Shown: positions 2,241 through 56,704 of the stretch, one piece after another | How the letters are laid out: each line of letters opens with the position of its first letter | Numbering within the stretch: position 1 is the stretch's first letter | DNA from: Heterodontus francisci | Lineage: Eukaryota | DNA length: 64,000 nt | Direction of reading: 5' to 3' | NCBI RefSeq assembly: GCF_036365525.1 | Contig: NC_090380.1 | Coordinates: 24,268,406-24,332,405 of the forward strand | Program-made: the position numbers and the translations under genes | The notes under the pieces: generated by a model | What the model was told of the DNA's origin: nothing | The model's input: only the letters and a program-made list of their open reading frames with translations | Databases searched by the model: none

Positions 2241-3289
2241 AAAAATGCCTTTGACTTTACAAGCAAGAAAGTGGCCAAACTGGGCCATTAATAGGCTTTC
2301 TTTGCCATATTGGCTGAAAAGAACCTGAGGCTCATGGTATTTCAATCCTGTACACCCAGAGAACTTGTTCAAATTAAATACATTACTATAAAAATGAAAT
2401 GTTACAAATGTGAGATATAGACAGGTCAATTAACATCTGTAAAGAGAAAAGGTCATGATGTTTCCGACTAAAATGTCGATTTGTCTGTTTGCTTTACAGA
2501 TGCTGTGCATTTCCAGCATTTACTGTTTTTACTCTAGTTCAATACAAGCTTACATACATCTGTAATGCTCGATCTCCCAGGTGCTACTCATGATAAGTTG
2601 TCTTATAACACTTTATATCAATTTAGTGTGTCAGGGAAAGCATTACAGGAAGCAAGTGTGATATTTACAGGCATTCCATGCTACAGGCAAGACTTTTAAG
2701 ATATTATAGATACAGAAACCTTGTACATTTATTGACAAACTGCTCACTCTTGGAAGCTGCAAACACCTGAGATTATTGTGCTTGCATTAATTAAGCCTTT
2801 GGCTTTAACATATCAAGGATAAAGAGTTCTCTCCTGCATCTCATTTCCATAAACAGAGTGATCCCCCAGCATGGCCTTCCTGCATCATAATGACCATTAG
2901 TACCACCCAATATCACAATGACGGCTGACACCACAGCAGGGCCTGAATTGCCACCACATGATTTGGGGAGGGTTCATGTTTGTCGTTAGGGGTTGGTGTT
3001 AGGGTTAGAAACTGCTAATGCCAGCACACTGTCAACAGCAAAGTCAGTTGTCACTAGATACATCCTTGAATAAATAGGTATAAAGTAAGCATGAATGTCA
3101 CTCCTCCCCGATACACTGCTCAGTTGCTTACAGTGGCAGTGAGATAAGCATCTGTCGACTGGATCAACGTTGTCCACTGTCTGCTCTGCTGAGCAATGCA
3201 CTGGCGAGGAGGCACATCATATTAATTTGGAGTTCTGTTCTTCAGTAGGATGGTTATCATAACTTTCCTTTCTAACTCGATTAAAAGCT

Positions 3290-5290
3290 TTTAACACTCC
3301 AGGTCTTGAGCACCAAAATCAAGGCTGACACTCCAGTGCAGTACTGAAGGAATCAACGTCGAAGCACTGTCGCAGGTGCTATCTTACGTTTTTTTTTTCA
3401 TTCATGGGATGCGGGCGTCGCTGGCTGGGCCAACATTTATTGCCCATCCGTAATTGCCCTAGAGAAGGTGGTGGTGAGCTGCCTTCTTGAACTACAGTGG
3501 TTCATGTTGGGTAGGTACACCCACGGTGCTGTAGGGAAGGGAGTTCCAGGATTTTGACCCAGCCACAGCGAAGGAACGGCGATATAGTTGCAAGTCAGGA
3601 AGGTGTGTGTGGTTTAGAGGGGAACTTGCAGGTGATGTTCCCATGCATCTAGGTGGTAGAGGTCGCAGGTTTAGAAGGTGCTGTCTAAGGAGCCTTGGCA
3701 CACTGCTGCAATGCACTGCTGCCACTGCGCATCATTGGTGGAGGGAGTGAATGTTTGTAGATGGGGTGCCAATCAAGCGGGCTGCTTTGTCCTGGATGGT
3801 GTCGAGCTTCTGGAGTGTTGTTGGAGCTGCACCCACCCAGGCAAGTGGAGAGTATTCCATCACACTCCTGACTTGTGCCTTGTAGATGGTGGACAGGCTT
3901 TGGGAGTCAGGAGGTGAGTTACTCGCCTCAGGATTCCTAGCCTTTGGCCTGCTCTTGTAGCCACAGTATTTATACAGCTACTCCAGTTCAGTTTCTGATC
4001 AATGGTAACCCCTGGGATGTTGATAGTGGGGGATTCACTGATCGTAATGCCATTAAATGTCAAGGGGAGATGGTTAGATTCTCTCTTGTTGGAGATGCTC
4101 ATTGCCTGGCACTTGTGTGGTGCAAATGTTACTTTCCACTTATCAGCCCAAGCCTGGATATTGTCCAGGTCTTTCTGCATTTCTAAACGGACTGCTTCAG
4201 TATCTGAGGAGTCGCGAATGGTGCTGAACATTGTGCAATCATCAGTGAACATCCCCACTTCTGACCTTATGATTGAACGAAGGTCATTGATGAAGCAGCT
4301 GAAGATGATTGGGCCTAGGACGTTTCCCTGAGGAACTCCTGCAGTAATGTCCTGGAGCTGAGATGATTAACCTCCAATAACCACAACCGTCTTCCTTTGC
4401 TCTAGGTACAACTCCAACCAGGGGAGAGTTTTCCTGATTCCCATTGACTCCAGTTTTGCTCGGGCTCCTTGATGCCATACTCTGTCAAATGCTGCCTTGA
4501 TGTCAAGGGCAGTCACTCTCACCTCTGGTGGTCAGCTGTTTTGTCCATGTTTGAGCCAAGGCTGTAATGAGGTCAGGAGCTGAGTGGCCCTGGCGGAACC
4601 CAAACTGAGCTTCAGTCAGCAGGTTATTGCTAAGCAAGTGCCGCTTGATAGCACTGTCGATGACACCTTCCAACACTTTACTCATAATTGAAAATAGCCT
4701 GATCGGGCAGTAATTGGTTGGGTTGGACTTGTCCTGATTTTTGTCTACAGGACATACCTGGGCAATTTTCCACATTGCTGGGTAGATACCAGTGTTGTAG
4801 CTGTACTGGAACAGCTTGGCTAGGGGTGCAGCAGGTCTTCTTATTGCCGAATGTTGTCAGGGCCTTTGCAGTATCCAGTGCCTTCAAGTCATTTCTTGCC
4901 ATCACGCAGAGTGAATTGAATTGGCTGAAGACTGGCATCTGTGATGCTGGGGACTTCAGGAGGAGGCAGAGATGGATCAACAACTCGGCACTACTGGCTG
5001 TAGATTGCTGCAAATGCTTCAGCCTTATCCTTTGAGATGTTAAACCAAAGCTCCATCTGCCTGCTTGGGTGGATGTAAAAGATCCCATGACATTATTTCA
5101 AAGGAAATCAATATTTATCCCTCAAGCAACATCAAAAGAGATCATCTGGTCATTATCACATTGCTGTTTGTAGGTGTTTGCTGTGCACAAATTGGCAGCC
5201 TCATTTCCTACATTTCAAACATAATTCATTCGCTGTAAAGCACTGAGACATCCAGCGGTCGTGAAAAGTGCCATATTTATGCAAGTCTTC
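3290..5290 (+). mobile_element. SacSINE1/DeuSINE-like SINE split in two (about 3290-3385 and 5031-5290) by a LINE insertion
   Basis: 5' half (ggctgacactccagtgcagtactga...) and 3' half (gagatgttaaacc...ggatgtaaaagatcccatg...aatatttatccctcaa) are collinear with the copy at 7650-8130. Confidence 0.6.
3389..5030 (-). mobile_element. CR1/L2-group LINE, 5'-truncated, frameshifted RT
   Basis: ORF fragments with RT motifs (NYCPIRLFSIMSKVLE, QFGFRQGHS, FTDD, KVTFAPHKCQ); 3' tail and A-tract at about 3389. Confidence 0.85.
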
Positions 5291-5304: not shown

Positions 5305-7640
5305 GCAGGAACAATGGGCTGACTTGAAAGAGATGATTTCAGTACAATCGAGATACATTCCCACAAGGGGGAAAGATAGGGCAAGCAAGGCCAGAGTTCC
5401 CTCGATGTCATAAAAGATGGAGGGGATGATGAAGCAGAAAAAGGGCGCATATGGCAAATGTCAGGTTGATAATACAAGTGAGAACCAGTTTAAATATAGA
5501 AAGTTCAAAGGGGAAGTGAAAAGGAAATACGAGAAGAGACTGGCAGCTAACCTAACTGAATCCAAAAGTCTTGTATAGGCACATAAATAGCAAAAAGTAG
5601 TAAGAGGAGGGGTGGGGCCAATTCGGGACCAAGAAAGGAATCTACACATGGAGGCAGGGGGCACGGCTGAAGTACTAAATGAGTACTTTGCATCCGTCAT
5701 ACCTAGGAAGATGCTGCTGCCAAAGTCAGAGAAAGAGGAGGTAGTTGAGATGCTGAATGTGCTAAAAATTGATAGAGGTATTAAAAAGTTTGTCTGTACT
5801 TAAAGTTGATAGGTGACCAGGACCAACTGGGATACATCCAAGGACACTCAGGGAAGTAAGGGTGGAAACTGCAGAGGTACTGGCCAAGTCTTCCAATCCT
5901 CCTAAGATACAGGGGCGGTGGCAGAGGACTGGAGAACCGTAAATGCTACATCCTTGCGCAAAAAAAAAAAAGGATGCAAGATAAACACTAGAACTACAGA
6001 CCAGTCAGTCAGTTTAACCTCAGTGGTGGGAAAGCTTTTCAAAATGATAATCCAAGATAAAACTAATCATCACTTGGACAAGCAGCGCTTTGTGATTCTG
6101 TGAAGTGTGGATTAAGAAAGACAGCATGGACTTGTTAAAGGTAAATTGTGTTTAACTACTTGAGCTTTTTGATAAGGTAACAGAGAGGGTTGGAGGGTAA
6201 TGCAATTGATGTGGTGTCCATGGACTTCCAAAAGGGGTTTGATAGAATGCCACATAATAGGCTTGCCAGCAAAGTTGAAGCCCATGGAATAAAAGGGGCA
6301 ATAGCAGCATGGACATGAAATTGGCTGAGACACAGCTGTTTTTTTAAACTGGAGGAAGGTATATCGTGAGGTTACCCAGAGGTCAATATTTGTACCACTT
6401 TCCTTGATATATATTAATGACCTAGACTTGAACATAATTTCAAAATTTGCAAATGATACAAAACTTGGAAGCATTGTGAGTTACGAGGATAGTGATAGAC
6501 TTCAAGAGGACGTAGACAGGCTGATGGAATGGGTGGACACGTGGCAGATCAAATTTAATGCAGAGAAGCGTAAAGTGATAGATTTTGGTAGGAAGAACGA
6601 GGAGAGGCAATATAATAGAGGGTATAAGTCTAAAAGGGATGCATAAACAGTAAGACCTGACAGTACAAGTGCACAAATCATTGAAGCTGGAAGGGCAGGT
6701 TGAGAACGTGGTTAAAAAAGCATAAGGGATCCCGAACTTTATGAACAGAACATAGTACAAAAGCAAGGAAGTTATAGTGAACCTTTATAAAATATTGGTT
6801 CTGCCTCAACTGGAATATTGTATCCAATTCTGATCACCACACTTTAGGAAAGATGTGAAGGTTTTGAAAAGGATGCAGAAAAGATTTACGAGAATGGTTA
6901 CAGAGATAAGGGACTTCAGTTACATGGATAGATTTGATTAGCTGGGTTGTTCTTAATAGAGAATGTTGAGATATTTGATTGAGTTGTTCAAAATTATGAG
7001 AAGTCTAGATAGAGTAGATAGAGAGGGCAACACAGTGGCGCAGTGGTTAGCACCGCAGCTACACAGCTCCAGCGACCCGGGTTCAATTCTGGGTTCTGCC
7101 TGTGCGGAGTTTGCACGTTCTCCCTGTGACTGTGTGGGTTTCCTCCCACAGCCAAAGGCTTGCAGGTTTTTAGTTAAATTGGCCATTATAAATTGCCCCT
7201 AGTCTAGGTAGGGGAATTGAGGGTAGGAATATGGGACTAATGTAGGATTAGTATAAATGGGTGGTTGATGGTCGGCACAGACACGGTGGGCCGAAGGGCC
7301 TGTTTCAGTGCTGTATCTCTAAATAAAATAAAAACTGTTCCAATTGGTGGAAGAGTCAGAAACAGAGGACATAGATTTAAGGTGACTGGCATAAGAACCA
7401 AAGCAGACAGGAGGAAAAACTTTGTGCAGCAAGTGGTCACGATCTGGAATGCACTACCTGAGAGGATGGTGGAGGCATATACAGTCATAGCTTTCAAAAG
7501 GGAATTAGATAATCACCTGAAGGTAAAGATTTTCGGGGTTACGGGGAAAGGGCAGGGGAATGGGTCCAGCTAAATTGCTCTTGCGGAAAGCTGACAGACA
7601 GGACAGGCCAAACGGCCTTCTGTGTTGTAACCATTCTACT
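5305..7640 (+). mobile_element. Decayed CR1 LINE
   Basis: RT fragments (IYINDLD..ISKFANDTKLG, WQIKFNAEK, GHRFKV); CR1 3' end ctgtgttgtaaccattcta. Confidence 0.85.
7025..7333 (+). mobile_element. HE1-like V-SINE nested in CR1
   Basis: tRNA head gggcaacacagtggcgcagtggttagc...gggttcaattc, V-domain tgtgcggagtttgcacgttctccc, CR1-type tail gggccgaagggcctgtttc..gctgtatctctaaataaaa; interrupts the host CR1. Confidence 0.85.
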
Positions 7641-7649: not shown

Positions 7650-8130
7650 GTTAGAAGGTTGTAGGCTTAAGTCCCACTCCAGGACTACAGCACAAAAATC
7701 TAAGCTTACACTCCCAGTGCAGTACTGAGGGAGTGCTTTAATAATAATGGGCAGTTCTGATGAAGGGTCACTGACCTAAAACATTAACTCTGCTTCTCTC
7801 CCCATAGATGCTGGCAGACCTGCTGAGTATTTCCAACATTTCTAGTTTTTATTTCTGAGGGAGTGCTACACTGTTGGAGGTCCAAGGCCCCACGTGTCCT
7901 CTCAAACAGATGTAAAAATATTCCATGCCACTATTTTGAAGAGCAGAGCAGCAGTTATCCCAAGTGTCCTGGCTAATATTTATCCCTCAACCAACACAGT
8001 ATCTGGTAATCTTATTGTTGTATATGGGAGCTTACAGTCCATAAATTGGCTGTCACATTTCCTAAATTACAACAGTCTTCCCTTTCAAACTAACTTCATC
8101 GAGGTGCCCAGAAGTCGTGAAAGGCACAAA
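7650..8130 (+). mobile_element. SacSINE1/DeuSINE-like SINE containing a mini Penelope-derived insertion
   Basis: Motifs ccagtgcagtactgagggagtgct and gatgtaaaa..ccatg..ctattttgaagagcag; collinear with 3290-5290. Confidence 0.6.
7738..7854 (+). mobile_element. Penelope-derived mini-element with hammerhead-like core
   Basis: agttctgatgaagggtcactgacctaaaacattaactctg; flanked by the 13-bp direct repeat ctgagggagtgct (7725-7737 and 7855-7867). Confidence 0.75.
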
Positions 8131-8328
8131 TCCAAGCCTTCTCCTCTCCTTTCCCCCCCACGGGAAATTTTCAGAGTTAAAAGACTGGCGCTAATCAATG
8201 GCGCGTTATACTGTATTTCATATATCATTGATCACTCCTCATTTAAAGCCATTAAAACATTACATGTTGTGGACATGTTTTAGAAACAAAGTAGCAGCAA
8301 ATAGGATCGTGCAACTTATGGAGAGCGA

Positions 8329-8419
8329 AGAAGGGTCACTGACCCGAAACGTTAACTCTGCTTCTCTTTCCACAGATGCTGCCAGACCTGCTGAGTGATT
8401 CCATCATTTCTTGTTTTTA
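8329..8419 (+). mobile_element. Penelope-derived mini-element (5'-truncated hammerhead core)
   Basis: agaagggtcactgacccgaaacgttaactctg...; flanked by the 13-bp direct repeat ttatggagagcga (8316-8328 and 8420-8432). Confidence 0.75.
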
Positions 8420-8851
8420 TTATGGAGAGCGATGCTTTTTTAACCGTCGCAACAACAAAAAGCAGGCTTGGAAGACATATTCGCTTCAACAAAATTAGTA
8501 CTGACAATAATGGGGTTACTGAGTATCCTGCTACAATGATATAGTATCAATACAAAATCGAACCAAATCCAATTGCGAGCGCCACAGTCGCACCGGGCGG
8601 GGTGGGATCCATACAATGAAGTACAGCGGCTGTTATCCACTAAAGAGCCAGAGAGAGCCTCTCAAGCCGATAAAGCGCGGCCGGCAGAACCGAGTGCAGT
8701 GAAGAGAGAGACGCGGGGTGTGTGTGTTCATCTGGCGGGCCCGGGCAGCTTCTCCGAAACCGCTTGTCGGTATTCCGGCCCGAGCCAGCACTTGCTGCGG
8801 AGGGGGGGGCAGGCCGCCGAGACCACCAGCTAGTTCCCTTTCCATCCTTAC

Positions 8852-8916
8852 CTGCCCGGAGAAGTGCTTTCCTCAGAGCCACTGGCAGCCGCTTTCTTCA
8901 GGGGCTTAGGGGGCAT
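8852..8916 (-). CDS. RB1: Retinoblastoma protein, coding exon 1 (MPPKPLKKAAASGSEESTSPG-R); later exons not found in the window
   Basis: gccATG start, N-terminus MPPK typical of RB1, phase-2 donor AG|GTAAGG as in RB1 exon 1, CpG island, RB1-type promoter motifs, and position downstream of ITM2B as in human. Confidence 0.85.
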
Positions 8917-9014
8917 GGCGCGAAGAGACAAAACGACCTTTCGGCTCGAGCCCGCTGCCTTCAAGTGTTTGAAAAGCTGCTTCGCTCCGAACCAACAGAC
9001 ACCCACCCCCCACA

Positions 9015-9056
9015 GCGCGCCAAATACATGCCGCTTCCGGCTTTGGCGTCACTTCC
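9015..9056 (-). promoter_or_regulatory. RB1 core promoter: ETS/ATF composite GGAAGTGACG (9047-9056), ETS CCGGAAGC (9033-9040), E2F TTTGGCGCGC (9015-9024)
   Basis: Motifs read directly on the minus strand, 100-140 bp upstream of the ATG, in the same order as the human RB1 GABP/ATF/E2F core. Confidence 0.8.
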
Positions 9057-9401
9057 TTAGCACCGCCATGAGCAAAACAACAGGTCAAAGAGGAAGTAAC
9101 TCGTTGCCCAGAGCGGCATCAAACAGTAAGGTTTTACATATATAGATTGCACATACTCTTGTGATAGTTGATTTTTTTTAAATGCAAGCAGTCGGTTTCC
9201 TGTTTGAATGGACATGTTTGAACGGCATCAGTTCCCTAAAGCCAAAGGAGCAGGCAGTGAAAATATTTTCCCCTCTTTGGTCTATCCCATTGGTTGCCAC
9301 ATCATCCAGTGTTTACATTTTAATTGTATCTGTCGATACTGCGAACATTGAAAACTATTGTTGAATACACCGTTGTCACTCAGCGCATCAATTTACATTA
9401 A

Positions 9402-10200
9402 TATAAAAGCAAAATACTGCGGATGCTGGAAATCTGAAATAAAAACAAGAAATGCTGGAACCACTCAGCAGGTCTGGCAGCATCTGTAGAAAGAGAAGCA
9501 GAGTGAACGTTTCGGGTCAGTGACCCTTCATTGGAACTGACAAATATTAGAAAAGTCGCAGGTTATAAGCAAGTGAGGTGGGGGTGGGGCAAGAGATAAC
9601 AAAGGAGGTCTAGATTGGGATAAAAACAAGAAATGCTGGAACCACTCAGCAGGTCTGGCAGCATCTGTGAAAAGAGCAGAGTTAACGTTTCGGGTTAGTG
9701 ACCCTTCTTCGGAACGGGCCAGGCCACATAGCTGACCAAAAGGTCACGGAGCAAAGGCAAACAATATGTTAATGGTGTGTTGAAAGACAAAGCATTAGTA
9801 CAGATTAGGTATAAATACACTGAATATCGAACAGCAGCAAGTGCAAACCTGAAAAAAAAACAGTGGGTAAGCAAACTGAACAAACTAAGATGAAATGAAA
9901 TAAATGTAAAAAAAAAGGGAAGAAAAAATAACTAAAAATGAAAGTAAAATGGGGGGGCTGTCATGCTCTGAAATTATTGAACTCAATGTTCAGTCCGGCA
10001 GGCTGTAGTGTGCCTAATCGGTAGATGAGATGCTGTTCCTCGAGCTTGCGTTGATGTTCACTGGAACACTGCAGCAATCCCAGGACACAGATGTGAGCAT
10101 GAGAGCAGGGGGGGTGTTGAAATGGCAAGCAACTGGAAGCTCAGGGTCCTGCTTGCGGACTGAGCGGAGATGTTCCACAAAGCGGTTACCCAGTCTGCTA
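9402..10200 (-). mobile_element. Penelope-like element 3' fragment (GIY-YIG C-terminus plus two terminal-repeat copies)
   Basis: ORF 10014-10220 RLGNRFVEHLRSVRKQDPELPVACHFN matches the PLE endonuclease C-terminus; terminal repeat at about 9402-9540 and 9620-9715 matches the mini-elements. Confidence 0.8.
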
Positions 10201-11172
10201 TTGTAGGTAAGGTGTTGCATTTTGTCGACTTAACTCAAAGCTCAGTCGTGACAGCGGAACTGAAGTGGTCAGAAGCATATGAATCAAAGACAGCTGGAAA
10301 ACCTCCCATGAAAAACTATTACGGACTTATTATTACAACTAATTCTGAGTGCTTATATAATCAGGAAAATCTACAGATGAAGCATTTGGAAAATAGTGGC
10401 GAAGTGACCGCATTTGCTGATTATAAAAAAAAGTTATGCGCAAAGATTTAGCAGACTCCACGTTGTTGATTTTCCCTATTCTGCTGTGACTTTGAATCTC
10501 ACCATCTGTAGGGGGATCTGTGGCATCCAGCAACAGTAAAGTAAGCAAGTTCATCAGCCAACCAGACTGAAGATTTCTCAGAGACAACAAACCAGGAAGT
10601 AAATGTCAAAAACTATAATTCACTTTTTAATTATTTTATAGAAAGCAAAATGATGATTGGGACATAGACATGAGATTAAGGTAGATGATGAAATATCATA
10701 GACTTCAAAAAAACTTAAACATTGATTTTTGAATGTAATGAGGGAATGACACACTACATTTGCAAAGTTACCTTTTCAGCGCCAGAGAGGTTAACTTAGC
10801 ACCATCCCCGAGAAAGATCCAGAGGATGTTGTTCCATTTAGATGCCAGGAACAGGTTTGTACTGGTAGATGTGTCTTGGATTAGCTCTCATGCTGTGTTT
10901 GGTGGTGCATATTTGTAGATATTTTGTCGTGCAGGTGGGAGAATGCAAAATTGGATTCATTTTTTGTGCTCAATGCTTTAGTGTAAGTGTGTGAGACGGT
11001 GTACAGATCTTCTTAGATGCAAGGATGATTAAGCTTTGTTGGTCAGATTTAAATTTATTTTTCACATTATCTTATCCAGAAAAGCTTGATTTTTTGTGTG
11101 CGTGTGTGGATAAACTGAGCCATAATGCAAACTATACACTATTGCTCGAGTAAGTTTTCATGTTATGGAATA

Positions 11173-11933: not shown

Positions 11934-14900
11934 ACCTCAAAAGTAGTCCGCTCTGGATTGCTCCCAATGCTATGCACAAGTGAGTATAGAAATAGAAAGA
12001 GGAGACAAATGAATGCATGGCTGGAAAGATGGTGCAGGAGGGAGGGCTTTAAATTCCTGGGACATTGGGACCGGCTCTGGGGAAGATGCGATGTGTACAG
12101 GTCCGACTGAGTTGCTTGCAAGATGTTTTGCTAGTGCTGTTGGTAAGGGTTTAAACTAGTTTGGCAGGGGGATGGGGACCAGAGGGTGGACTCAGTTGCG
12201 ACAAAATCAGAAATTAAAATGGAAGGCAGAAAATTAATGGATGAGCCTAGAAGACCAAGGAAACAAAAGTTAGAAAATAAGATTTAGGTAGTGCTCAATG
12301 GTATCTATTTCAATGCAAGGAGTATAGCAAATAAAGCAGATGAGCTGAGGGCACGATGGACACGTGGCAGTATGATATCATAGCTATAGAAATGTGACTT
12401 GAGACACAGAAATGGCAGCTCAATGTTTCTGGGTACAGGGTTGTCACTCGTGATAGGGAGGGGGATAAGAAAGGAGGGGGAGTGGCAATTTTGGTCAAGG
12501 AAGCTATTACAGCTGTGTTGGAAGATTCATCAAATGAGGCCATATAGATTGAACTAAGGAACACAAAAGGGGCAATCACAATCCTGGGAATGTACTATAG
12601 ATCCCCAAACAGGCAAATGGAGATAGAAGAGCAAATATGTAAGCAAATCGAAGTGCAAGAATAATAGGGCAGGATTAGTAGGGGATTTTAACTACACCAA
12701 TATTAACGACAATTGTTTTAATGTGAAAGGAATTGAGGGACAAGAATTCAAGGTGCATTCAGAAGAACTTTTTTGGTCAGTTTATAGCAAGTCTGACAAG
12801 AGAGGGTGCAGTTTTAGGAAATGAAACTGGGCAGCTTCAATGAGTGGCAGCAGGAGAGCATTTTGGTGGTAGTGATCTTAATTCGGTCAGTTTTAACAAT
12901 TATGGAAAAGGACAGAACACTGGAGGTTAAAAGTTCTCAATTGGGGCAAGGTCAATTTTACTAAACTGAGGAGCAATTTCACAAAAGTGGACTGGAAACA
13001 GCTACTTGAAGGTAAATCAGTGTCAGAATAGTGGGAGACATTCAAAGGGGAGATTCAAGGCATTCAGAGTAAACACGCTCCCCCAAAGAAAAAGGGTGAG
13101 AAAAAGAGCCCCCAGACGTCAAGGAGCCTACAGGGTAAGATAAGGCAGAAAAGGAAAGCAGAGAACTTACTACAGAAAGCAGAGAGGAGGAATAGAAAGT
13201 GGAGGGGTGAAATCAAAAAGGAAATTAGGAAAGCAAAGAGAGGGCATGAAATATTGGCAAGCTAAAATCAAGGTGAACCCAAAGATGTTTTATCAATACA
13301 TTGAGTAAGAGGATAACTGAAGAGAGTGTAGGGCCCATAAAAGACCAAAAAGGTAACCTATGTGTACCAAGATTTTGGTATTGTTCTTAATGAATACTTT
13401 GTGTCTGTCTTCACAAAAGAGGGGGACGATGCAGGTATTGTAGTTAAGGAAGAGGGGTGTGAAGTATTGGATTTGATAAACATAGGGAGAGGAAGCATGA
13501 ATGGGATTAGCATCCTTGAAAGTTGATAAATTACCAGGACTAGATGAAATGTACCCCAGGATGTTAAAAGCAGCGAGGGGAAAAAGTGGAAGGTCTGACC
13601 ATCACTTTCCAGTCCTCACTGGATACTGGTGTGGTGCTGGAGGATTTAAAAAGGGAGCGAGGGATAGACCGAAGTAGTGGGCAAATTATTGAATCTATTC
13701 TGAGAGACAGGATGAACTATCACTTAGAAAGGCACAGGTTAATCAAGGATTGTCAGCATGGATTTGTTAAGCAACTTGATTGAATCTTTTGATGTGATCT
13801 ACATGGATTTTAGCAAGGCTTTTGACAAGATCCCACATGGCAGACTGGTGAAAAAAAATAAAATCCCATGGGATCCAGGGAATGCAACAAGGCGAATACA
13901 AAATTGGCTCAGTGGCAGGAAACAAAGGGTAATTGACAAGCTGTTTTAGCGACCGGAGGGCTGTTTCCAGTGGTGTTCCGCAGGGCTCAGTACTGGATCC
14001 CCTGCTTTTTGTGGTATATGTTAATGATTTGGATGTAAATGTAGGGGGCATGATCAAAGAGTTTGCAGATGACAGAAAGATTGGCCATGTGGTAGATAGC
14101 GAGGAGGATAGCTGAAGGCTGCAGGAAAATATTGGTCAAAAGTGCCAAATGGAATTCAACCCAGAGAAGTATGGGTTATGCAGCTGGGGAGGTCAAACAA
14201 GGCAAAGGAATACATAATTAATGGGAAAATACTGAGAAATGTAGAGGAAGTAAGGGACCTTGGCGTGAATATCCACATATCCCCTAAGGTAGCAGGACAG
14301 GTCGATAAGGTGGTTAAGAAGGCATATGGAATCCTTTCCTTTAAAGCCGAGATATAGAATACAAAAGCTGGAACTGTATAACTCATTGGAGAGAGAAGCA
14401 GAGTTAATGTTTCAGGTCAGGGACTCTTCATCAGAAAGTTCTAATGAAGGGTCACTGACTTGAAACCTTAACTCTGCTTCTCTCTCCACAGATGCTGCCA
14501 GACCTAAGTATTTCCAGCATTTGTTTTTATTTCAGATTTCCAGCATCTGCAGTACTTTGCTTTTATATTATATAACTCATTGGTTAGGTCACAGCTTGAG
14601 TACTGTGTGCAGTTCTGGTCCTCATTACAGAAAGGATGGAATTGCACTAGAGAGGGTACAGAGGAGACTTGAGGAAGTTGCCAGGACTGGAAAAATGTAA
14701 CTGAGGAAAGATTGGATAGGCTGGGGTTGTTCTCCTTGGAAGAGACAGCTGAGGGGATTTGAGTGGCCTAGATAGAGCAAAGGTGAAGGGGCTATTCAGC
14801 TTAGCAGAGAGGTCAGTGACTAGGGGGCATAGATTTAAAATGATTGGTAGAAAGATTAGAGGGACGAGGAGGAAAAGTCTTTTCACCCAGAGGGTGCTGC

Positions 14901-15097: not shown

Positions 15098-18000
15098 AAA
15101 GCCAGGAAGTTATGTTAAACCTATATAAAACACTAGTGCAGCCCCAGCTGGAGCATTATATCCAATTCTGGGCACTGCACTTTAGAAAGGACATGAAGGT
15201 TTTGGAGAGATTAGTTATCTGGATAGATAGGAGGAGGTGGTGTTGTTCTGCTTAGAGCAAAGGCAGCCAAGAGGAAATTTGATGAGATGTTTAAAATCAT
15301 GAGTTTGGATAGAGTGAATAAAGAGAAACTGTTTCCAATGCTGATGGGTTGATAACTAGAGGGCTCAGATTTAAGGTGACTGGCAAAGAACCAAGAAAAA
15401 CCTCTATGCATCGAGTGGTTCAAATTTGAAATATACTGTTTGATAGAGTGGTGAATGTAAATTCAATAGCCTTCAAAAGGGAATCTGATAAATATTGAGG
15501 AAACATTTATAGGGGCACAGGGAAGAGCAGGGGAGTGAGACCAGCCAGATTGTTCTTTGAAAGAATTGTTGCAGACTCAATGGGCTGAATGGTCTCCTGT
15601 ACTGTACTATTCTAATACACCATTAAAAATTACAGCTCATTCAACAAGGCTCAACATTTGATAGCTTTTATAGCAAAAATACTGCATAAAGAGTTGAAGT
15701 GCAGGTCAGATCACAGGCACTGACAATTTCATTATAGTTATAACTACAAATTCCAGGCTTTTTTTCCCCCAAAATTCTTTGAGCCACCACAGATCAGGTC
15801 AGTTACCATGCAATTTGTGGAAAATCCACCAATTAAAAAAAATTCAACTTGTTCGAATCTTCCTTCAAAAAACTTTGATTTACTATTTTTCTTAAATGTA
15901 AATGTTATGGGTTCAATAAAGCTAATTCAGATAATAAAATTGTATTGTGTAGTTTTGAGCATTTTCATTAAAGGGCCCAGCCTCCAAAGTCTCAAGTTGA
16001 CACTGTTGCCATAGTGCTTAGTTAAATCTGTTTCATGCAGTATATCTGAGTACATCAGTATGATTCTGTTGTGAACATATCTTTCAGCTACTAACAGTAT
16101 TTATCTGTTTTTCAAACAAGCCTTGATAAAGCTTTGAAATTTAAAAAAATGAAAAACAGTTTTTTTTAAAAATTTCAAATACAGTCTGGATGAGTGAGGT
16201 GGGCATAGACAATCAGGTGTGATGAGCAATTTGCTCCATTTACAGTTGCAATGCAAAACAGTTTGTAAAAAGGATTAAAATTTGGAAATTTTTCGTCAAA
16301 TCTATTTTCCAAAGGCTAAAAACCAAGTCATACTGTAGTATGGTTTCAGTTTCTTCAAATATTTGAAAAGGGGCTACAAGATACATGGTAAATAATTCTG
16401 TAAATGATGGCACCTTGGGCTAATGTGGTTCATGTTCCCATCTTTCTGTAAAAGCCAAGATAAAATTAAACACAAGACAAATATAAATCAAACCAAATTT
16501 GCAGTTTTCACAAATAGAATTCTGGTTTTTGATCCGCAAAACAGTGAAAATCTCAATATCATGTAATGAGCACACAATGTTATTTATTCAGTCACCAGAA
16601 ATCAGTAAAATAAAAACAAAATATGACTGTTCTAATAAAAAGGTCACAGACCTGAAACGTTCATTGTTTCTCTCTCCACAGATGCTGCCAGAGCAGAGTT
16701 TTTATACCAGAAATTAGCAGTCGGTAATGCATTTTGCCAGAACGCCTGTATAAACCTGTGTACCTTCAGACTGATTCACCGTTAAGCAATGCCATGAGAT
16801 CTGCTAGCAATACTATAAAATCTTAAATGTATTCATATTTCCTGTCCATCGCTCCTCAGATGGTCATCACATTTCAGACAGTGATGCAATTTGTCACATT
16901 TAGCCTATTTGTCCTAGTAAAATTAACTTGCCAATACCTGATGTAAATTTGTGTTTGAAATTCAATTTAAATTTCTTCCATCTAATTAGCTAAGCAAATG
17001 CTTTGACTTGGTTTTATTATATAAATTAGGGAAGCCATATACAAATATTTCAGAAATCATTCAAATCTGAAAAAAAATTCCTGCCATTATCATCCCTCAA
17101 TTTACCAATATCTCTTCAAAGGATTTTGAATGTTCTATTTATTCTACCAGATCAAAACCAGAATTCATTGGAGAGGATTCTCTGCTTGGACCCCTGGGCT
17201 TGTTACTTTTACCGAGATATTGGGCAGGTAAAGGCATGTTATAGACAGGTGAAGTATGACAAGGTTGGTTTCCCCTTTCTCACCCCTCAACTGACCAACA
17301 GCGTTTTTTTTTTAAAAGTTTTAACCCGAGTGTTTTAATAGTCAACAGACAAATGACGTTTAAGTTTAAAGATAAATGTTTATTATACAATACCCCAAAA
17401 TATTACACCATTTCACCCACTCTAATATGCATACAGATACACAAGAGGTAGAGATAAAAACGTATGTGTTAGGGTCAGATGGTTAACAGTGCATTCTAAA
17501 ACATGCTTGAAGAAAACTCAAATGTTCAGGACAACAGATGTGTTGTAGTCTTCTCTAGTTATGTTACAGTTCAATTGTGAAAGCCTGCTACAATTTCTCA
17601 GGTTGGGAGATGTTCTGAGGCCAACTCTAGTTTCTGCTTACATGTATTTTTTGATGGAGATTTTAAAGCAGGGTCCTTCTTCACTGGTAACAGATGGAAT
17701 CCTCAATTTTGAACTGAATTAAAACTGAAATTCCAAAATGAATTAAACCAACACTGATTCTGCTCCAATTGTTCCATACTGCACTGCTACTTCACTTGGA
17801 CGCCTCAAGTCTGTTTGGATTTTTTTATATAAACAGTTTTACATTATACAGTTTAAAATCTTTCCTGTGAGACAAGCACATTCTGGATCGTGGGGCCTTA
17901 TGGCACATTTGTAGCACTGAATAGAAAGAAAAAGGTGCATAAAACTCAAATATAACACTTCATTCTAATTTGGTTCGGCCTTTCCTTGTTTGCAATGGTC

Positions 18001-22130: not shown

Positions 22131-22681
22131 TCAGAAGAGAGAAAAAGTTCAACAACTGGTTTTGGAACAGTTTCTACTTTAAAGTGGTCCTGTAGCCAGA
22201 AATCACTAATGTTTGTACAGAATATAAAAGTAGAGTAGACATGCCAAATCATTAAGACGTCAGCCAGGTTTTCAAAGTTTTTTTCAAGTAAGTGGACCAA
22301 CAGGTTGAAAATATTGTTTAATTCCCCATAATTTTTCCTAAATTAGGAGAGAGACTTTCCCCAAGAGGTTGGGGTGGGGGGGGGGTGGGGGGGGTGGAAA
22401 GAGGGGGAAAAGAGGTGGTGCATGTGAACTGAACTATGTCTAATTTGACAATACTTGATGGACCACTTGGTCCTTTCCTCCTTTTGTCAAATTAATTGTG
22501 AAGGCAAGGCATGTGGGTGGAATACATCATTGGAGAGATCCATAGCATATAGTGGAAAAATCCAGAACAGTAGGTAAAGCTTCAATGAAAAAATGAACAG
22601 GTAATCTATTAGGCTGCATTAGCATAATGATATTGCAAAATTACTGTGCAAGGTGTTTGTCAGGAACCACCTAAACCAGTA

Positions 22682-23560
22682 CAAAAGCAAAATACTGCAG
22701 ATGCTGAAAATGAACAGAAATTGCTAAAATACTCAGGTCAGACAGCATGTGAGGAACAGTTAACACTTCAAGTTGATTGTCAGAAACAGGAAAAATGTGA
22801 TGTAACAGTTTTAACCAACTATAGAGGCAGGGAAAGGGAAGACAGACAACAAAGGGAAGGTCTGTGATAGGGTGGAAGGCAGGGGAAATTAAGTGACAAA
22901 AGGGATGATGGTCTAAGGCAAAAGCTGGTAATGGAACCAAAAAAAGGGTAGAAGTTATAATCTGAAATTGAACTCAAATGTTGAGTCCAGAAGGCTGTAA
23001 AGTGCTTAACCAAAAAATGAGGTGCTTTCCGAGCTTACATTGAGCTTCATTGGAACACTGTAAAAGGCAAAGGACGGAATGGACAGAAAGGGAATGGGGT
23101 GGAGAATTAAAAACAACAAGCAACCAGAAGTTCAGGGTCAGGCTTGCAGATTTAACAGGTATTCTGCAAAGTGGTCACCCAATCCACTCTCCCTAACAGA
23201 GGAGACTGCATCATGAGCAACGATCATGATATACTAAATTGAAAAGTACAAGTAAATCACTTTCACTTTCAAGGAGCATTTGGAAGGGAGAAGATAAATG
23301 GGCAGATGTTGCATCTCCTGCACTTGCATGGGAGGTATCATAGGAAAGGGAAGGTGATTGAGGATTGGTCCAAGCGGAGTTACGTAGGAATGCTGAAAGG
23401 AGGGAAAGATGTGTTGAGGGTAGCATCATGCTGGAGGTAATGAAAAATGATCCGTTGAATATGGAGGCCGATAGGGCAGAAGGTGAGGACAAGGGAAATC
23501 TTATTGTGATTCTAAGAGAGGGGAGTGGAAGGGACAAGAGCAAGAGTGTGGAAAATGGAA
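22682..23560 (-). mobile_element. Decayed Penelope-like element fragment
   Basis: Same terminal repeat (aaaagcaaaatactgcagatgctg) and GIY-YIG-region similarity as 9402-10200. Confidence 0.65.
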
Positions 23561-24412
23561 CACTCCATCTGAATCACACCGTTCAAAACTTCTGTTCAAA
23601 CAGAGCTGAGCTTCAATCCCCACTTTGCGTTAATTACCAAGAATACTTGGCTCCAGAACATCCTCTGCCACCTCAAAATCTGATTTCTCCACAATAGCTG
23701 TCCCATCCTTGATAATTCCAACCTGTCCAAAATGTAGTTGCTCACATCCCACACTAGGCACTGCATGTCCTACCCTCCCTGCCAAATACAGTCCTTGCTG
23801 ACCTATACCAGTCACCCAATGAATAGGGAATTTGAAATCCTAATCTTCAAGTACTGCACTCCCTCATCCCACCTTACCTCTGCAACTCCCTCCAGTCTGA
23901 TTACCTCCTGTTAAATCTTCAGATTTCTTCACATTCCCACTCACTTCTCCCCACGACTGGTACCACCTTCAATCGTCCTGGCTGCTTTCTGAAACCTCCT
24001 TCCTAAACGTTTGTGCCTTTACATTAAGAAATTTTCCCAAAATCCATCTTTTGGCCAGCCATCCTAATAGGTCAGTGACTAAGTGTCAGTTCCTCCATTT
24101 ATGAAATGCGTCAAGATGTCTGCCAATAAATAAATTAAGTGTACTGTGCGCAGTGCTGTTCACCTTATCACAAAGAATATTACTGACTCCCCCTGAAGAC
24201 ATCTGGGTCTTGCACTCTGGAGTCTCCTCCTTAAAGCTCTCTTTAAAATCATCCTTAAAAATCAACCTCTGACCAAGCTTTGAGTCACCTCTCCCAATAT
24301 CTCAGCACCTGTTTCTGGCTGCTTACACTGAAGCCCCTTGGGATGTTTCTCCATGTTAAAAGGTGTTATGCAAATTCAAGTTGTTGTACATCTCAGAACA
24401 ATTTTAAAAGAT

Positions 24413-39730: not shown

Positions 39731-41787
39731 TCTTCTTTTCTTTTTCTTTTGGGCCTCCTTATCTCGAGAGACAATGGATACGCGCCTGGAGGTGGTCAGT
39801 GGTTTGTGAAGCAGCGCCTGGAGTGGCTATAAAGGCCAATTCTGGAGTAACAGGCTCTTCCACAGGTGCTGCAGAGAAATTTGTTTGTTGGGGCTGTTGC
39901 ACAGTTGGCTCTCCCCTTGCGCCTGTCTTTTTTCCTGCCAACTACTAAGTCTCTTCGACTCGCCACAATTTAGCCCTGTCTTTATGGCTGCCCGCCAGCT
40001 CTGGCGAATGCTGGCAACTGACTCCCACGACTTGTGATCAATGTCACACGATTTCATGTCGCGTTTGCAGACGTCTTTATAACGGAGACATGGACGGCCG
40101 GTGGGTCTGATACCAGTGGCGAGCTCGCTGTACAATGTGTCTTTGGGGATCCTGCCATCTTCCATGCGGCTCACATGGCCAAGCCATCTCAAGCGCCGCT
40201 GACTCAGTAGTGTGTATAAGCTGGGGGTGTTGGCCGCTTCAAGGACTTCTGTGTTGGAGATATAGTCCTGCCACCTGATGCCAAGTATTCTCCGAAGGCA
40301 GCGAAGATGGAATGAATTGAGACGTCGCTCTTGGCTGGCATACGTTGTCCAGGCCTCGCTGCCGTAGAGCAAGGTACTGAGGACACAGGCCTGATACACT
40401 TGGACTTGTGTTCCGTGTCAGTGCGCCATTTTCCCACACTCTCTTGGCCAGTCTGGACATAGCAGTGGAAGCCTTACCCATGCGCTTGTTGATTTCTGCA
40501 TCGAGAGACAGGTTACTGGTGATAGTTGAGCCTAGGTAGGTGAACTCTTGAACCACTTCCAGAGCGTGGTCGCCAATATTGATGGATGGAGCATTTCTGA
40601 CATCCTGCCCCATGATGTTCGTTTTCTTGAGGCTGATGGTTAGGCCAAATTCATTGCAGGCAGACGCAAACCTGTCGATGAGACTCTGCAGGCATTCTTC
40701 AGTGTGAGATGTTAAAGCAGCATCGTCAGCAAAGAGGAGTTCTCTGATGAGGACTTTCCGTACTTTGGACTTCGCTCTTAGACGGGCAAGGTTGAACAAC
40801 CTGCCCCCTGATCTTGTGTGGAGGAAAATTCCTTCTTCAGAGGATTTGAACGCATGTGAAAGCAGCAGGGAGAAGAAAATCCCAAAAAGTGTGGGTGCGA
40901 GAACACAGCCCTGTTTCACACCACTCAGGATAGGAAAGGGCTCTGATGAGGAGCCACCATGTTGAATTGTGCCTTTCATATTGTCATGGAATGAGGTGAT
41001 GATACTTAGTAGCTTTGGTGGACATCCGATCTTTTCTAGTAGTCTGAAGAGACCACGTCTGCTGACGAGGTCAAAGGCTTTGGTGAGATCAATGAAAGCA
41101 ATGTAGAGGGGCATCTGTTGTTCACGGCATTTCTCCTGTATCTGACGAAGGGAGAACAGCATGTCAATAGTCGATCTCTCTGCACGAAAGCCACACTGTG
41201 CCTCAGGGTAGACGCGCTCGGCCAGCTTCTGGAGCCTGTTCAGAGCGACTCGAGCAAAGACTTTCCCCACTATGCTGAGCAGGGAGATTCCACGGTAGTT
41301 GTTGCAGTCACCGCGGTCACCTTTGTTTTTATAGAGGGTGATGATGTTGGCATCGCGCATGTCCTGGGGTACTGCTCCCTCGTCCCAGCACAGGCATAGC
41401 AGTTCATGTAGTGCTGAGAGTATAGCAGGCTTGGCACTCTTGATTATTTCAGGGGTAATGCTGTCCTTCCCAGGGGCTTTTCCGCTGGCTAGGGAATCAA
41501 TGGCATCACTGAGTTCCGATTTGGTTGGCTGTATGTCCAGCTCATCCATGACTGGTAGAGGCTGGGCTGCATTGAGGGCAGTCTCAGTGACAGCATTCTC
41601 CCTGGAGTACAGTTCTAGGTAGTGCTCAACCCAGCGGTCCATCTGTTTGCGTTGGTCAGTGATTATGTCCCCCGATTTAGATTTGAGGGGGGTGATCTTC
41701 TTGATGGTTGGCCCAAGAGCTCTCTTCATGCCATCATACATTCCTCTGATGTTTCCGGTGTCTGAGGCCAGCTGAATATGACTGCAT
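39731..41787 (-). mobile_element. Young 5'-truncated RTE-clade LINE with 52-bp TSD
   Basis: 500-aa ORF with RT (NYRGISLLS, QCGFR, FIDLTKAFD, GVKQGC, LLFADD); two frameshifts lead to LLYGSEAW and the C-terminal motif CSTCGRACYSRIGLYSHSRRC; (AAAAG)n-like tail; identical 52-bp flanks 39679-39730 and 41788-41839. Confidence 0.95.
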
Positions 41788-42132
41788 AAGTTTACCTCTA
41801 TTACCCCATTTCAATCCAAGTTTTTTTTCAAAAAAGTATACATTAAGATTAAGTTGCAAATTTCAGCCCAACAATGAAATGTACTACACAAGTATTGCAT
41901 AACATGAAAACTTACTCTTGAGCAATAGTGCAGTTTATGTTATGGTTCAGTTTATCCACACAAAGAAATTAAGCTTTGCTGGACAAGTTAGTGCACAAAA
42001 TTAATTTAAATCTGACTAAGGATGCCTTGTCATCCTTGCATCTAAGAACATCTGCACTCCATCACACATTTAATCTTAACTGTCAAAGCATAAGATCAGG
42101 TTTAAAAAAAATCCAATTTGGCAGTCTCCTAC

Positions 42133-48887: not shown

Positions 48888-48921
48888 TCCCAAACAACAT
48901 GAACTCCCTCCCAGCTCATAT

Positions 48922-49295
48922 CGCCCCTCTCCCTCGCCCCGCCCCCTTTCCCTCGCCCCCGCCCCCTTTCCCTCTCCCTCTCCCTCTCCCCCGCCCCCTT
49001 TCCCTCTCCCTCTCCCCCGCCCCCTTTCCCTCGCCCCGCCCCGCCCCGCCCCCTTTCCCTCGCCCCGCCCCGCCCCCTTTCCCCCGCCCCGCCCCGCTTC
49101 CCTCGCCCCGCCCCCTCTCCCCGCCCCCTTTCCCCCGCCCCGCCCCGCTTCCCTCGCCCCGCCCCTCTCCCTCGCCCCCGCCCCCTTTCCCCCGCCTCGC
49201 CCCCGCCCCCTTTCCCCCGCACCGCCCCCGCCCCGCACCGCCCCCTTTCCCTCGCCCCGCCCCCGCCCCTTTCCCTCACCCTCTCCCTCTCCCCT
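48922..49295. repeat. GC-box minisatellite (unit about CCCCGCCCCCTTTCCCTCG) in the ITM2B promoter
   Basis: Irregular tandem repeats of ccccgcccc with tttccc/ctcg spacers; almost A-free on the plus strand. Confidence 0.9.
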
Positions 49296-49336
49296 GCGCC
49301 TCGCCTGGCAATCTGTCGCCCTGCCTCAACACCAGA

Positions 49337-54056: not shown

Positions 54057-54857
54057 GTTCCTGCCACTCAGGTAGTAGCTAGGAGAAGCACAAGGATAGG
54101 TTCAGGTGCTCACACATTGGCACCAATGGGAAACAGGGTGGTGATATGAGTTTTTCATAGAATGGTTGCAGCATAGAAGGAGGGCATTCGGCCCATTGTG
54201 TCAGTGCTGGCTCTCTGAAAGAGCAACTCTGCTAGTCCCACTCCCCTTTATTAAAATTATGGTTGCTCTAAAGTCATTGTTTGTGCAAATGTAGTTTCAT
54301 GCAAACATTGAAACTAGCTTTCATCAGATGACACTAAAAGAAAGCTGTGTGAGTTGATGCTTGTTGATGGTGGCACATTTGTGGTTCTTCCTCCAACAAA
54401 AAGTGAACCAAACATTTTTTCATGAATAAATATATTGTTTCTATTTAAGAAAAACTTGCATTTACGGGGCATTTTCTAACACTTTCAGGATGTCCCAAAA
54501 CACTTCACTTTAAATGAATTATCTTAAGTGTTATCACTATGGTTATGCCAGCAAATACAGCAGACAATTTCACACAGTATGATCCCACAGACAGCAAACA
54601 AGATGAACAACCAGTTAATTTTCTTTTGTGGCATTCGGTAAAGGGGAATTCTCTGCTCTTCCATCAATAATACCCTTACATTCATCTGAGTAGGCAGGAC
54701 ATTGCCATAATGTTCCATCCAAAACACAGCACCCATAACAAAACAGCACTCCCTCAGCACCGCCCTGATGTGGCAGCTTGGGTTACAAGCCCACTGTCAT
54801 CAAAATTCAGAGGAAAGAGTGCTATCAGCGAAGCAAAACTGAGCAATTGAACTGACA

Positions 54858-55940
54858 TATGAAATAAAAATAGAAAGTGCTGGAAATACCCAGCAGGTTT
54901 AGCAGCATCTGTGGAGAGAGAAGTGGAGAGGATTAACGGGCTGGATTCCATGAACTCGGCGTCGAGATTGGCAGCGAGCTCAAGCAGGCTGCACGCCAAA
55001 GAGCCACCGCAATCTTAAGCTCTGGCTCATTTAAATAGCCGGGGCAGCCCGCACCACCCCCCCCCCCCACCCCCCCAATCACATGGAGGGGGTGGGCTGT
55101 CCGCCCCCAGCAATGGCATCAGCTGCCTGTGCACAGGCGTGGCGCCATTTTTACAGGGCAGTCAGCCCTGCCGGAATATTTAAATTTTTAAAGACATATC
55201 CCCCCAGAATTCCACAAATAAAGTTCCATTGCCCCTTTCCCACCCACCCCCCCCATAACAATTACACGATCTATTTGTCCTTCCCCCCCAAAACACTTAC
55301 CTTGAACATCTGACCTTCCCCTACCCCCCAACAAACTGCACAAAGTTTAAAGTACACCCCTTCCCACCATCCCCTACACCCATGATGTTTATTTGACCCA
55401 GTTTCCCGCACCCACCCACCCCCCCACACTAATAAACTTGCCTCCACCTCCCTCCCCATCAGTGTCGTGCCTTGTTTCCCCAGACGGGGATCTGAAAGTG
55501 CAGCAATGCCGGCCGCCACGCCAAAGATTGTTGTGGGCCCTCAAGATTGTGGGTGATTATATTTAAATCAATTAATTTTATTGATATAAATATTCAAATT
55601 GTTGTACCATTGCCCAGCAGCAGGGAGGCTGCCACGGAGCCTCGCCAGCACCGGGAGAATCGGGCCGGGCCCTGCCGGCGCATCGGGGTCCGTGGCGGGC
55701 CTCATCCGGAGCCATATTCAGGCCCCACCACCGCCGCCACAGATCACAACGTCGAGGGCTGCTTAAAATCCATCCCAACATTTCAGGTCTGTGACCTTTC
55801 ATCAGAAGTTCTGATGAAAGGTCACAGACCTGAAATATTAACTCTGCTTCTCTCTCCACAGATGCTGCCAGACCTGCTGAGTATTTATAGCACTTTCTGT
55901 TTTTATTTCAGATTTCCAGCATCTGCAGTATTTTGCTTTT
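54858..55940. mobile_element. Head-to-head Penelope-derived mini-element split by a MITE
   Basis: Left arm 54858-54937 resumes at 55777; palindromic centre gacctttcatcagaagttctgatgaaaggtc; 12-bp TSD attgaactgaca (54846-54857 and 55941-55952). Confidence 0.8.
54938..55776. mobile_element. Non-autonomous DNA transposon (PIF/Harbinger-like MITE)
   Basis: Termini gggctggatt and aatccatccc form an imperfect TIR; 3-bp TSD AAC (54935-54937 and 55777-55779); removing it rejoins the two parts of the host element. Confidence 0.7.
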
Positions 55941-56704
55941 ATTGAACTGACAAATGTGCAATCAAAGTTCTATGGAAATGCAGCCATAACATTAAACTCA
56001 TATTTGGTTCAAGATGCTGGTATTTGATTCTGTAGAATATATCTATATACAATTTCTGTCTTTGCCAATCTACTGTGACTAGCAGTATGCAGTTCAACTT
56101 GGGTAACTGACTTATCCAGGAATAATTACTGAAAGATATCCAGAAAGAACTAGTAACGTAGCACCTTTAAGTGAATAAGATTATCATTTTGCAATTTGAC
56201 AGATAGATTTGTGAGACCATCTCCACTGAGCCAAGTTTCCCTGGGCATTGTTTTTAATATTACAATATGATTCACTGTAGTTCACGTGACAGGATAGTGC
56301 ATCTTCCCGTTTCTCCTCACTGAAATATCAACTGAAATTTGATCAATGTCCCTGCTTAAATCATAACTCCTTTCATTAATTGCACTATGGCATGCCTGAA
56401 CTTGTTCAACAGGCTTACCCATTTCCTACAGAAATACATCACAAAAAATTCCAGGGCAGTTCTACTTGGACAAAAAAATTTGGATTAGCAAAGGAATACT
56501 TACTTTTAGTGTGGTGAAAATCTGAAAATTAATGGACGAAGGATCATTTTGAGAAGTTCTGCTCCAGTCATGGAGCCTCATCAGATTGGAGCATGAGTTG
56601 GAAATAGGGTGATAACATGAGGGGTGGCACAACCTAGCCCAGCTTACATCCATCAGACTCTGCACCAGTATCAGAGCTTTAAAAATCGTACATACAATAC
56701 CAAC

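Follow-up and report, generated by a model that had tools for sequence, protein, structure and literature searches.

The window analysed here is a 64-kb stretch of DNA from the shark Heterodontus francisci that is rich in pieces of CR1-type LINEs. It contains two LINE-type reverse transcriptase (RT) frames (40242-41810, minus strand, 523 codons, and 59666-60874, plus strand, 403 codons; Pfam RVT_1), a C-rich low-complexity tandem tract (48920-49320) and, at 7027-7330, what we take by eye to be a tRNA-headed SINE-like repeat with an A-rich tail. Two divergent first exons lie about 150 bp apart in a CpG-rich stretch, one at 8851-8916 on the minus strand and the other at 9068-9127 on the plus strand. 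The minus-strand exon begins MPPK and presumably corresponds to RB1, which it resembles. A further first exon (61620-61691, plus strand) resembles MED4, which we take to be a neighbor of RB1 in other vertebrates.

Scattered through this DNA are copies of a repeat that is the pseudo-LTR (pLTR) of an endonuclease-positive Penelope-like element (PLE). Using BLAST and a profile search of the 64-kb window we recovered every position at which the first-pass annotation had placed the repeat, namely 7738, 8329, 9402, 9620, 14390, 16629, 22680 and 54858/55780. The profile search added two decayed pLTR remnants at 61377-61430 and 2495-2533. In what follows, the A of TCAGTT at 9538, which is also the first base of stem I of a predicted hammerhead ribozyme, is numbered +1. 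The features are as follows.

7725-7737, unstranded: left target-site duplication of 13 bp, repeated exactly at 7855-7867
7738-7854, plus strand: solo pLTR stub of an older subfamily, without tail; it starts 15 nt upstream of the initiator-like A (7753) and its GAAA is mutated
8316-8328, unstranded: left target-site duplication of 13 bp, with its second copy at 8420-8432; the final 3 nt are also those of the hammerhead core (microhomology)
8329-8419, plus strand: solo pLTR stub of the young subfamily, without tail; it starts inside the core (+6 to +9), leaving stem I incomplete
9400-9538, minus strand: 3' pLTR and tail of a 5'-truncated PLE, with 3' ends near 9438 (no tail) and at 9399-9405 (tail)
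9502-9538, minus strand: putative minimal type I hammerhead, from sequence and published consensus
9534-9618, minus strand: promoter-like set, by motif match
9620-9715, minus strand: second pLTR stub, inside the 3' UTR of the longer copy; it starts at +2 and has only GGG on each side
9961-10198, minus strand: C-terminal half of the PLE GIY-YIG endonuclease with its stop codon, 5'-truncated just past the YIG motif, frame broken near 10107
14377-14389, unstranded: left target-site duplication of 13 bp within a CR1 LINE, repeated at 14571-14583
14390-14436, minus strand: inverted arm of 47 bp, 42/47 identical to the direct arm; it spans hammerhead +3 through a 3-nt microhomology shared with the target
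14437-14570, plus strand: direct arm with tail, starting at +1
16594-16717, plus strand: decayed head-to-head insertion with a 12-bp duplication (16594-16605 and 16706-16717, one transition); it comprises an inverted 3'-end piece of about 20 bp (16606-16625) and an internally deleted direct arm (16629-16705) that starts at about +2
22680-23595, minus strand: older 5'-truncated PLE piece with tail, decayed hammerhead, a different 3' UTR, a decayed GIY-YIG region and a CxxxxCxxC linker (about 23300-23330)
54846-54857, unstranded: left target-site duplication of 12 bp, repeated at 55941-55952
54858-55807, minus strand: inverted arm without tail, from +3, interrupted later by an 839-bp element (54938-55776)
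55808-55940, plus strand: direct arm with tail, starting at +2; the sole arm that fits the published hammerhead consensus, with A-U at the base of stem II
61377-61430, minus strand: decayed remnant of the 3' part of the pLTR (nhmmer E 6.9e-05)
2495-2533, plus strand: decayed remnant of the 3' part of the pLTR (nhmmer E 3.6e-04)

The young copies at 8329, 9402 and 9620 are 94-95% alike. Older subfamilies are 82-87% like the young one in the pLTR and 69% in the endonuclease. In one sequencing run 86,563 reads matched the pLTR/PLE family, and an exact-pattern scan for further copies in viral contigs, prokaryote genomes and metagenome contigs returned 0 loci. The unit had been said also to occur alone. 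This holds for the solo stubs at 7738 and 8329, while the units at 14390 and 54858-55940 are each a single head-to-head insertion and not separate copies. The first intron of the minus-strand (MPPK) gene holds the stubs at 7738 and 8329 in antisense orientation, and the 9402 piece is antisense to the gene's plus-strand neighbor.

The link to a PLE comes from the coding sequence upstream of the pLTR. The first annotation read the unit as the terminal repeat of a GIY-YIG-bearing PLE fragment at 9402-10200. It is a PLE terminal repeat, but the GIY-YIG motif itself is absent from this fragment: positions 9964-10198 (minus strand) encode the back half of the endonuclease and start just after the motif. 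In X23, a capture library, 3,781 reads continue from 10198 into the YIG codons. A search of all representatives gave 61 proteins. Homologues of the coding piece carry PLE RT and GIY-YIG sequence, and tblastn with P0042, P0049, P0005 and P0020 matched 9967-10196 and 22977-23595. Pfam GIY-YIG matched weakly, below cut-off, on 4 of the 14 homologues scanned, and Pfam gave no match on the two short coding pieces of the window, both of which stop short of the RT core. By motif reading we take the homologue P0049 to have RT-like sequence with YIDD ahead of the linker; Pfam gave no match there. Among proteins, 9964-10107 is matched best by a Heterodontus francisci HHAT isoform that contains an exonised copy (86% identical). 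Endonuclease pieces appear fused to predicted host proteins in P0001, P0003 and P0004 (HHAT, ATP synthase c and a 7TM receptor), either through exonisation or through an error of annotation.

The 9402 piece ends short of the linker, and the older piece retains a linker motif, CKCRRCNIC, near 23300-23330. Because of this CxxxxCxxC linker in the 22680-23595 piece, the parent PLE is likely of Neptune type: in the available parts of Craig 2021 (PMC8557442), a CX2-5CxxC linker is found in Neptune and Nematis and not in Penelope/Poseidon. An ATG at 9483 (minus strand) opens 28 codons that run through the tail, and rotifer PLE pLTRs are described as holding first codons (PMC3846280/PMC8557442). The pLTR has several acceptor-like sites in its sense strand, and the one immediately ahead of this ATG is the strongest.

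Within the pLTR we found a putative minimal type I hammerhead with a GUU cleavage site, a reading supported by the letters and their match to a published consensus. At 9502-9538 (minus strand) stem I would pair 9538-9535 with 9505-9502, and the core (9534-9528), stem II (9526-9514), GAAA (9513-9510) and a palindromic ACGU place the predicted cut between 9506 and 9505. A minimal-hammerhead pattern matched three sites in the window, all within the repeat, whereas every one of 20 Markov controls gave none; a simpler pattern matched two sites versus none in 100 shuffles. The type I consensus and the GUU site are supported as first annotated, except that the CUGAUGA core is limited to older copies (7738, 14390, 55808). 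Young copies (8329, 9402, 9620) read CCGA, with C at core position 4. Among the positions listed, X23 reads carried G5 in 11,180 of 11,901, A7 in 8,703 of 11,925 and A1.1 in 20,101 of 20,597. Most arms have core changes, as had been noted, and the arm at 55808 is the one that is fully intact.

Tests of structure gave mixed results. The stems paired in 85.7% of cells over eight arms, against 13-48% when slid, and covariation over the same arms was not above shuffles (95/500 as high). A single change, from G-C to A-U in the basal pair of stem II, was seen in two of eight arms, and CpG decay can explain its C-to-T side. Single-strand folding compared with shuffles gave z of -2.7 for one copy and -1.0 to +0.4 for four. 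In predicted folds, which do not report activity, two 9620 hammerhead regions pair through the AACGUU palindrome and the 55808 pair folds otherwise. A model search with Rfam returned no hammerhead in the window at E up to 5; its 13 weak matches (12 microRNA hairpin models and one snoRNA), all far under gathering scores, were set aside as hairpin noise. In the accessible parts of published work, a U4C change lowers activity in vitro and keeps viroid infectivity, minimal hammerheads cleave poorly even as dimers (Cervera 2014), the Anolis hammerhead requires protein (Frangieh 2024, PMC11167929), and 8 of 9 Xenopus retrozyme dimers do not cleave.

The motif agrees with the minimal hammerheads of Cervera 2014 (PMC4209133) in its CUGANGAH core, a stem II closed by G-C after one extra base, GAAA, palindromic CG, UH and a short stem I, and GAAACGUU is frequent among the 56 examples given there. 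In the portions of that paper available to us, most motifs are solo and some form opposite-strand pairs 100-700 bp apart. No shark or ray is among the 56 examples and none has CCGA, unlike the young copies here; those portions do not cover 5' ends, duplications or promoter elements.

We examined the sequences flanking the short insertions. Three perfect 13-bp target-site duplications and one of 12 bp had been reported, and all proved exact: the 13-bp pairs at 7725/7855, 8316/8420 and 14377/14571 are non-extendable, and the 12-bp pair at 54846/55941 bounds 54858-55940. Among 600 similarly spaced position pairs drawn at random from the window, a match of 12 bp was reached once and one of 13 bp never. 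A fifth duplication, 16594/16706, is 12 bp long with one transition and bounds 16606-16705; the 9-bp exact match there, which could be taken for element sequence, was accepted as belonging to this duplication. Duplication lengths for the six short insertions are therefore 13, 13, 13, 12 and 12 bp in five and 3 bp in the sixth (9620), where no duplication beyond GGG was found on either side. Under a uniform model of 7-20 bp the chance that five of six lengths fall within two adjacent values is 0.004. No duplication was found on searching the 9402, 22680 and 61377 pieces.

When the insert and one duplication were removed at 14390, the CR1 sequence became colinear with a CR1 copy near 60312; for the other three duplication-bounded insertions the same operation gave no match spanning the site. 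The CR1 sequence that hosts the 14390 insertion has also lost 13 bp in a separate deletion (14350-14365), which lies 12 bp upstream of its target site. At both 8329 and 14390 the element shares the final 3 nt of the duplication, and because of these 3-nt microhomologies the true stagger may be 10-13 bp. A nearly fixed stagger, as first proposed, is thus overstated in view of this range and of the 3 bp at 9620; what stands is the narrow 12-13 bp length in five of six insertions.

The insertions end at two alternative 3' positions. Among the 3' loose ends listed for X23 are 9399 (2,092 reads), 9403 (6,128), 9405 (3,667) and 9438 (1,436). A distance of 35 bp separates the two 3' ends and represents the known 30-40 bp tail of PLEs, which has been tied to two internal RT start sites (Frangieh 2024, PMC11167929, in part). 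The 3,667 reads run past the tail at 9405 (agreement 0.62) into partly shared sequence, which may be continuation of the ORF, a tandem form or one captured host locus, and this end was not used as evidence. Both 3' ends (9399-9405 and 9434-9442, minus strand) come after a TTTTAT motif, and at the 3' junctions the target often has 1-3 nt in common with the continuation of the element.

Three insertions, at 14390, 16606 and 54858, are head-to-head inverted pairs. The arms of the 14390-14570 pair are identical at 42 of 47 positions beside the junction and are joined by 2 nt. Those of the 54858-55940 pair are identical at 30 of 31, are joined by 1 nt and have a tail on one arm only, an arrangement also drawn in Fig. 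2 of Craig 2021 (PMC8557442). In the third pair the inverted piece at 16606-16625 is a 3' end without hammerhead. Nested in the inverted arm at 54938-55776 is an 839-bp G+C-rich element with short TIRs (GGG..CCC, 9/10 alike) and a 3-bp duplication; it is present as a single copy in the window and is possibly a non-autonomous DNA transposon. Reading 9402 and 9620 as a tandem or a retrozyme dimer was rejected, as at least 4,876 X23 family reads in six listed joints skip the 9620 unit, which makes it a nested secondary insertion.

The 5' ends of the arms cluster at the 5' edge of the hammerhead. The arm at 14437 starts at +1, those at 55808 and 9715 at +2 and that at 16629 at about +2; the left arms (14390 and 54858) start at +3, the stub at 8329 at +6 to +9 and the one at 7738 lies 15 nt upstream of +1. 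None of the six short insertions starts at the ribozyme cut site (after +33). Based on six insertions in one window, five start 1-9 nt from the initiator-like A; the chance of five of six within 10 nt is 0.0004, or 0.003-0.015 when the two decayed remnants are counted as misses.

Promoter-like letters on the minus strand accompany this position: TCAGTTC at 9540-9534, TATAA at 9567-9563 (-29), CACCC at 9586-9582 (-48) and CCAAT at 9618-9614 (-80). With the usual definitions of Inr, TATAA and CCAAT, and with criteria chosen after the site was noticed, the set of three occurs at two places on both strands of the 64-kb window, one of them 9538. CCAAT is kept in the main family variants (X23 between-letters). 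TATAA is not perfectly kept: the letter at 9565 is different in 1,017 of 9,118 reads, the older piece is TTAAAA-like, and four contigs of organism C read CCTAT.

Read depth in X23 was 23,935 at 9488, 18,693 at 9514 and 9,692 at 9540. Beyond the hammerhead it was 8,580 at 9558, 10,243 at 9747 and 8,590 at 10024, staying within 8,580-10,243 (9579 included) except in the low-complexity 3' UTR, where it dipped to 2,500-5,200. The loss across the hammerhead is a step and not a slope and fits a distinct short class, a comparison that is confounded: the step is inflated because older subfamilies share the pLTR and not the body, and X23 is a capture library. The X23 reads give no one sharp 5' end, because none of the six loose ends listed (the smallest with 1,436 reads) is a 5'-side end in 9500-9560. 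We discarded 745 RAD reads and seven contigs ending at 9714-9715, where the reference copy itself ends.

To account for the PLE link, the two 3' ends, the 12-13 bp duplications, the head-to-head pairs and the clustered 5' ends, we propose that the stubs arise from target-primed reverse transcription by the PLE itself, as run-off cDNAs primed at its internal start sites and copied to the 5' end of uncleaved RNA. We give this reading a probability of roughly 0.55. That the stubs are by-products of the PLE and not a self-sustaining family is very probable. From the promoter-like letters we infer that transcription would begin at the initiator A, behind the TATAA (-29) and CCAAT (-80) in the upstream 3' UTR. 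The mRNA would then carry the hammerhead at +1 to +37 (cut after +33), the ATG at +56 and RT start sites at +101 and +136. Priming at the 5' copy of the start sites would end in run-off after 100-135 nt and leave a promoterless stub, and priming on both nicked strands would join two stubs head to head. Long copies would arise when priming takes place on a read-through transcript, at its downstream pLTR. The ends of insertions would not be set by the hammerhead, which, if active as a dimer or with protein assistance, would remove the capped first 33 nt.

The nearest experimental parallel is Poseidon_Ac of Anolis (Frangieh 2024, PMC11167929). In the available parts of that study, the protein nicks and extends both target strands in vitro, two internal RNA start sites define the tail, uncleaved RNA is used and the length of the product is set by the RNA 5' end; our proposal carries these properties over to the shark element. 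Poseidon_Ac differs in belonging to the Penelope/Poseidon clade and in an ORF that starts in stem II, whereas the ATG here lies 23 nt past the cut site. Those parts of the study do not derive stubs from a transcript start.

Early 5' truncation would give similar products without any transcript start: RT would begin at the 3' pLTR of a long transcript and, once the hammerhead stems were unwound, would tend to stall and let go. Heavy 5' truncation is a known feature of PLE insertions (a Chlamys pair has a median of 128 bp), and most solo minimal hammerheads have been read as truncated PLEs (Cervera 2014, in part). The depth loss, spread over 9490-9540 with no dominant 5' loose end among those listed, is also in line with truncation, as is the stub at 8329, which ends within the core at a microhomology. 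A stall is, however, expected at the 3' foot of a stem, and in five arms the end lies beyond the entire motif, at +1 to +3. In four of five copies the hammerhead region folds no better than shuffles, and the spacing of initiator and TATAA would be a coincidence. We consider truncation rather unlikely; the first-pass annotation had offered extreme 5' truncation as one origin, and as a random process this is weakly supported, since the 5' ends cluster at the hammerhead edge. Another way to place ends at +1 to +3 is a spliced or splice-processed template, with AG|TT inside stem I as a 3' splice site. CAG|TT does come after a pyrimidine-rich stretch (score 0.65), left arms start exactly at TT, and in D. 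virilis an intron end falls at helix I's 5' end, with a start site 46 bp before that intron (Cervera 2014, in part), so that a different layout is documented. Such a look is cheap, given that eight [CT]AG sites in 240 bp of this pyrimidine-rich strand score 0.55-0.85; the stubs have no common upstream exon and PLE copies, as published, usually keep introns. Splicing seems highly improbable as the source of these ends.

The other origin proposed at first was a non-autonomous, retrozyme-like (or SINE-like) family, in which the stub would be transcribed, self-cleave, perhaps circularise and be re-inserted by PLE proteins. The pLTR has about three times the depth of the body, non-LTR retrozymes related to pLTRs have been reported, some in one chondrichthyan (Li 2026, 10.64898/2026.07.22.740005), and putative non-autonomous Chlamys PLEs are described (Craig 2021, PMC8557442). 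Metazoan non-LTR retrozymes also share with the stubs a type I hammerhead, kinship with pLTRs and a lack of coding capacity (Cervera 2020, PMC7229834; Li 2026). In the accessible parts of these papers, however, they have canonical hammerheads in tandem repeats of 150-450 bp, with tandem arrays and circular RNA (Cervera 2020) or at least two consecutive hammerhead units (Li 2026), whereas the stubs here are single or head to head. We found no tandem units in the window (the apparent dimer 9402/9620 being the secondary insertion), no end at the cut site and no circularly permuted copy. The 3' ends are the two start sites of the PLE itself, the stubs are without upstream promoter-like elements, and they share subfamilies with long copies (8329 and 9620 are 94-95% like 9402). 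A retrozyme-like family is thus unsupported and, in our view, very unlikely. For the inverted pairs alone, a fold-back could replace two-strand priming: the cDNA would fold on itself, or an antisense template would self-prime, and the second arm would copy the first. The arms share subfamily letters at the identities given above, self-priming has been proposed for palindromic junctions (Arkhipova 2013, PMC3846280, in part), and a small TCAG-TT-CTGA palindrome lies in the element at the junction point. The junction loops of 1 and 2 nt, with TT in both arms, are nevertheless not the product of that palindrome, and the inverted piece at 16606-16625, a 3' end with no hammerhead, suits separate priming better. 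We regard fold-back as unlikely.

Several elements of this picture are already published: solo minimal hammerheads, opposite-strand pairs, inverted pLTRs, tails and very short PLE insertions all appear in the parts of the literature available to us. Complex PLE insertions (Arkhipova 2013, PMC3846280; Craig 2021, PMC8557442) share with those here head-to-head inverted pLTRs, a tail at one end, solo pLTRs and target duplications, as well as a pLTR with first codons and a TATA plus an Inr-like motif in a pLTR. In the portions considered, their duplications, described as variable, measure 8-10 bp in the examples quoted, compared with 12-13 bp in five of six here. A further difference is that whole insertions here are only 90-270 bp long and have their junction at the hammerhead's 5' edge. 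We also drew on parts of PMC9977147, PMC3088659, PMC6155905, PMC8969392, PMC2377424 and PMC3138052. Our literature search did not turn up this shark family, nor the mode of 12-13 bp, the C4 core or the reading of a start site; Repbase and most subscription papers were outside its scope, and the family may well be annotated in Repbase.

As a bare catalogue entry, one more PLE with a minimal hammerhead is ordinary. The origin of solo and inverted pLTRs and the role of weak hammerheads are still treated as open in the accessible parts of Craig 2021 (PMC8557442) and Frangieh 2024 (PMC11167929), and a shark family with this many matching reads in one run is a large natural data set. The part worth testing is the reading of a start site and two-strand priming. 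Taken together, and held tentatively at somewhat short of even odds, this reading would make the first transcribed base the first base of stem I, behind a TATA/CCAAT promoter supplied by the upstream copy. The abundant solo and mirror stubs would be complete run-off cDNAs of the mRNA 5' end, with priming on a single strand or on the two strands of a cut staggered by 10-13 bp. The genome would then document, on a very large scale, PLE start sites together with the geometry of the cut and priming on two strands, and the ribozyme may be a decapping switch on the mRNA rather than the maker of the template end.
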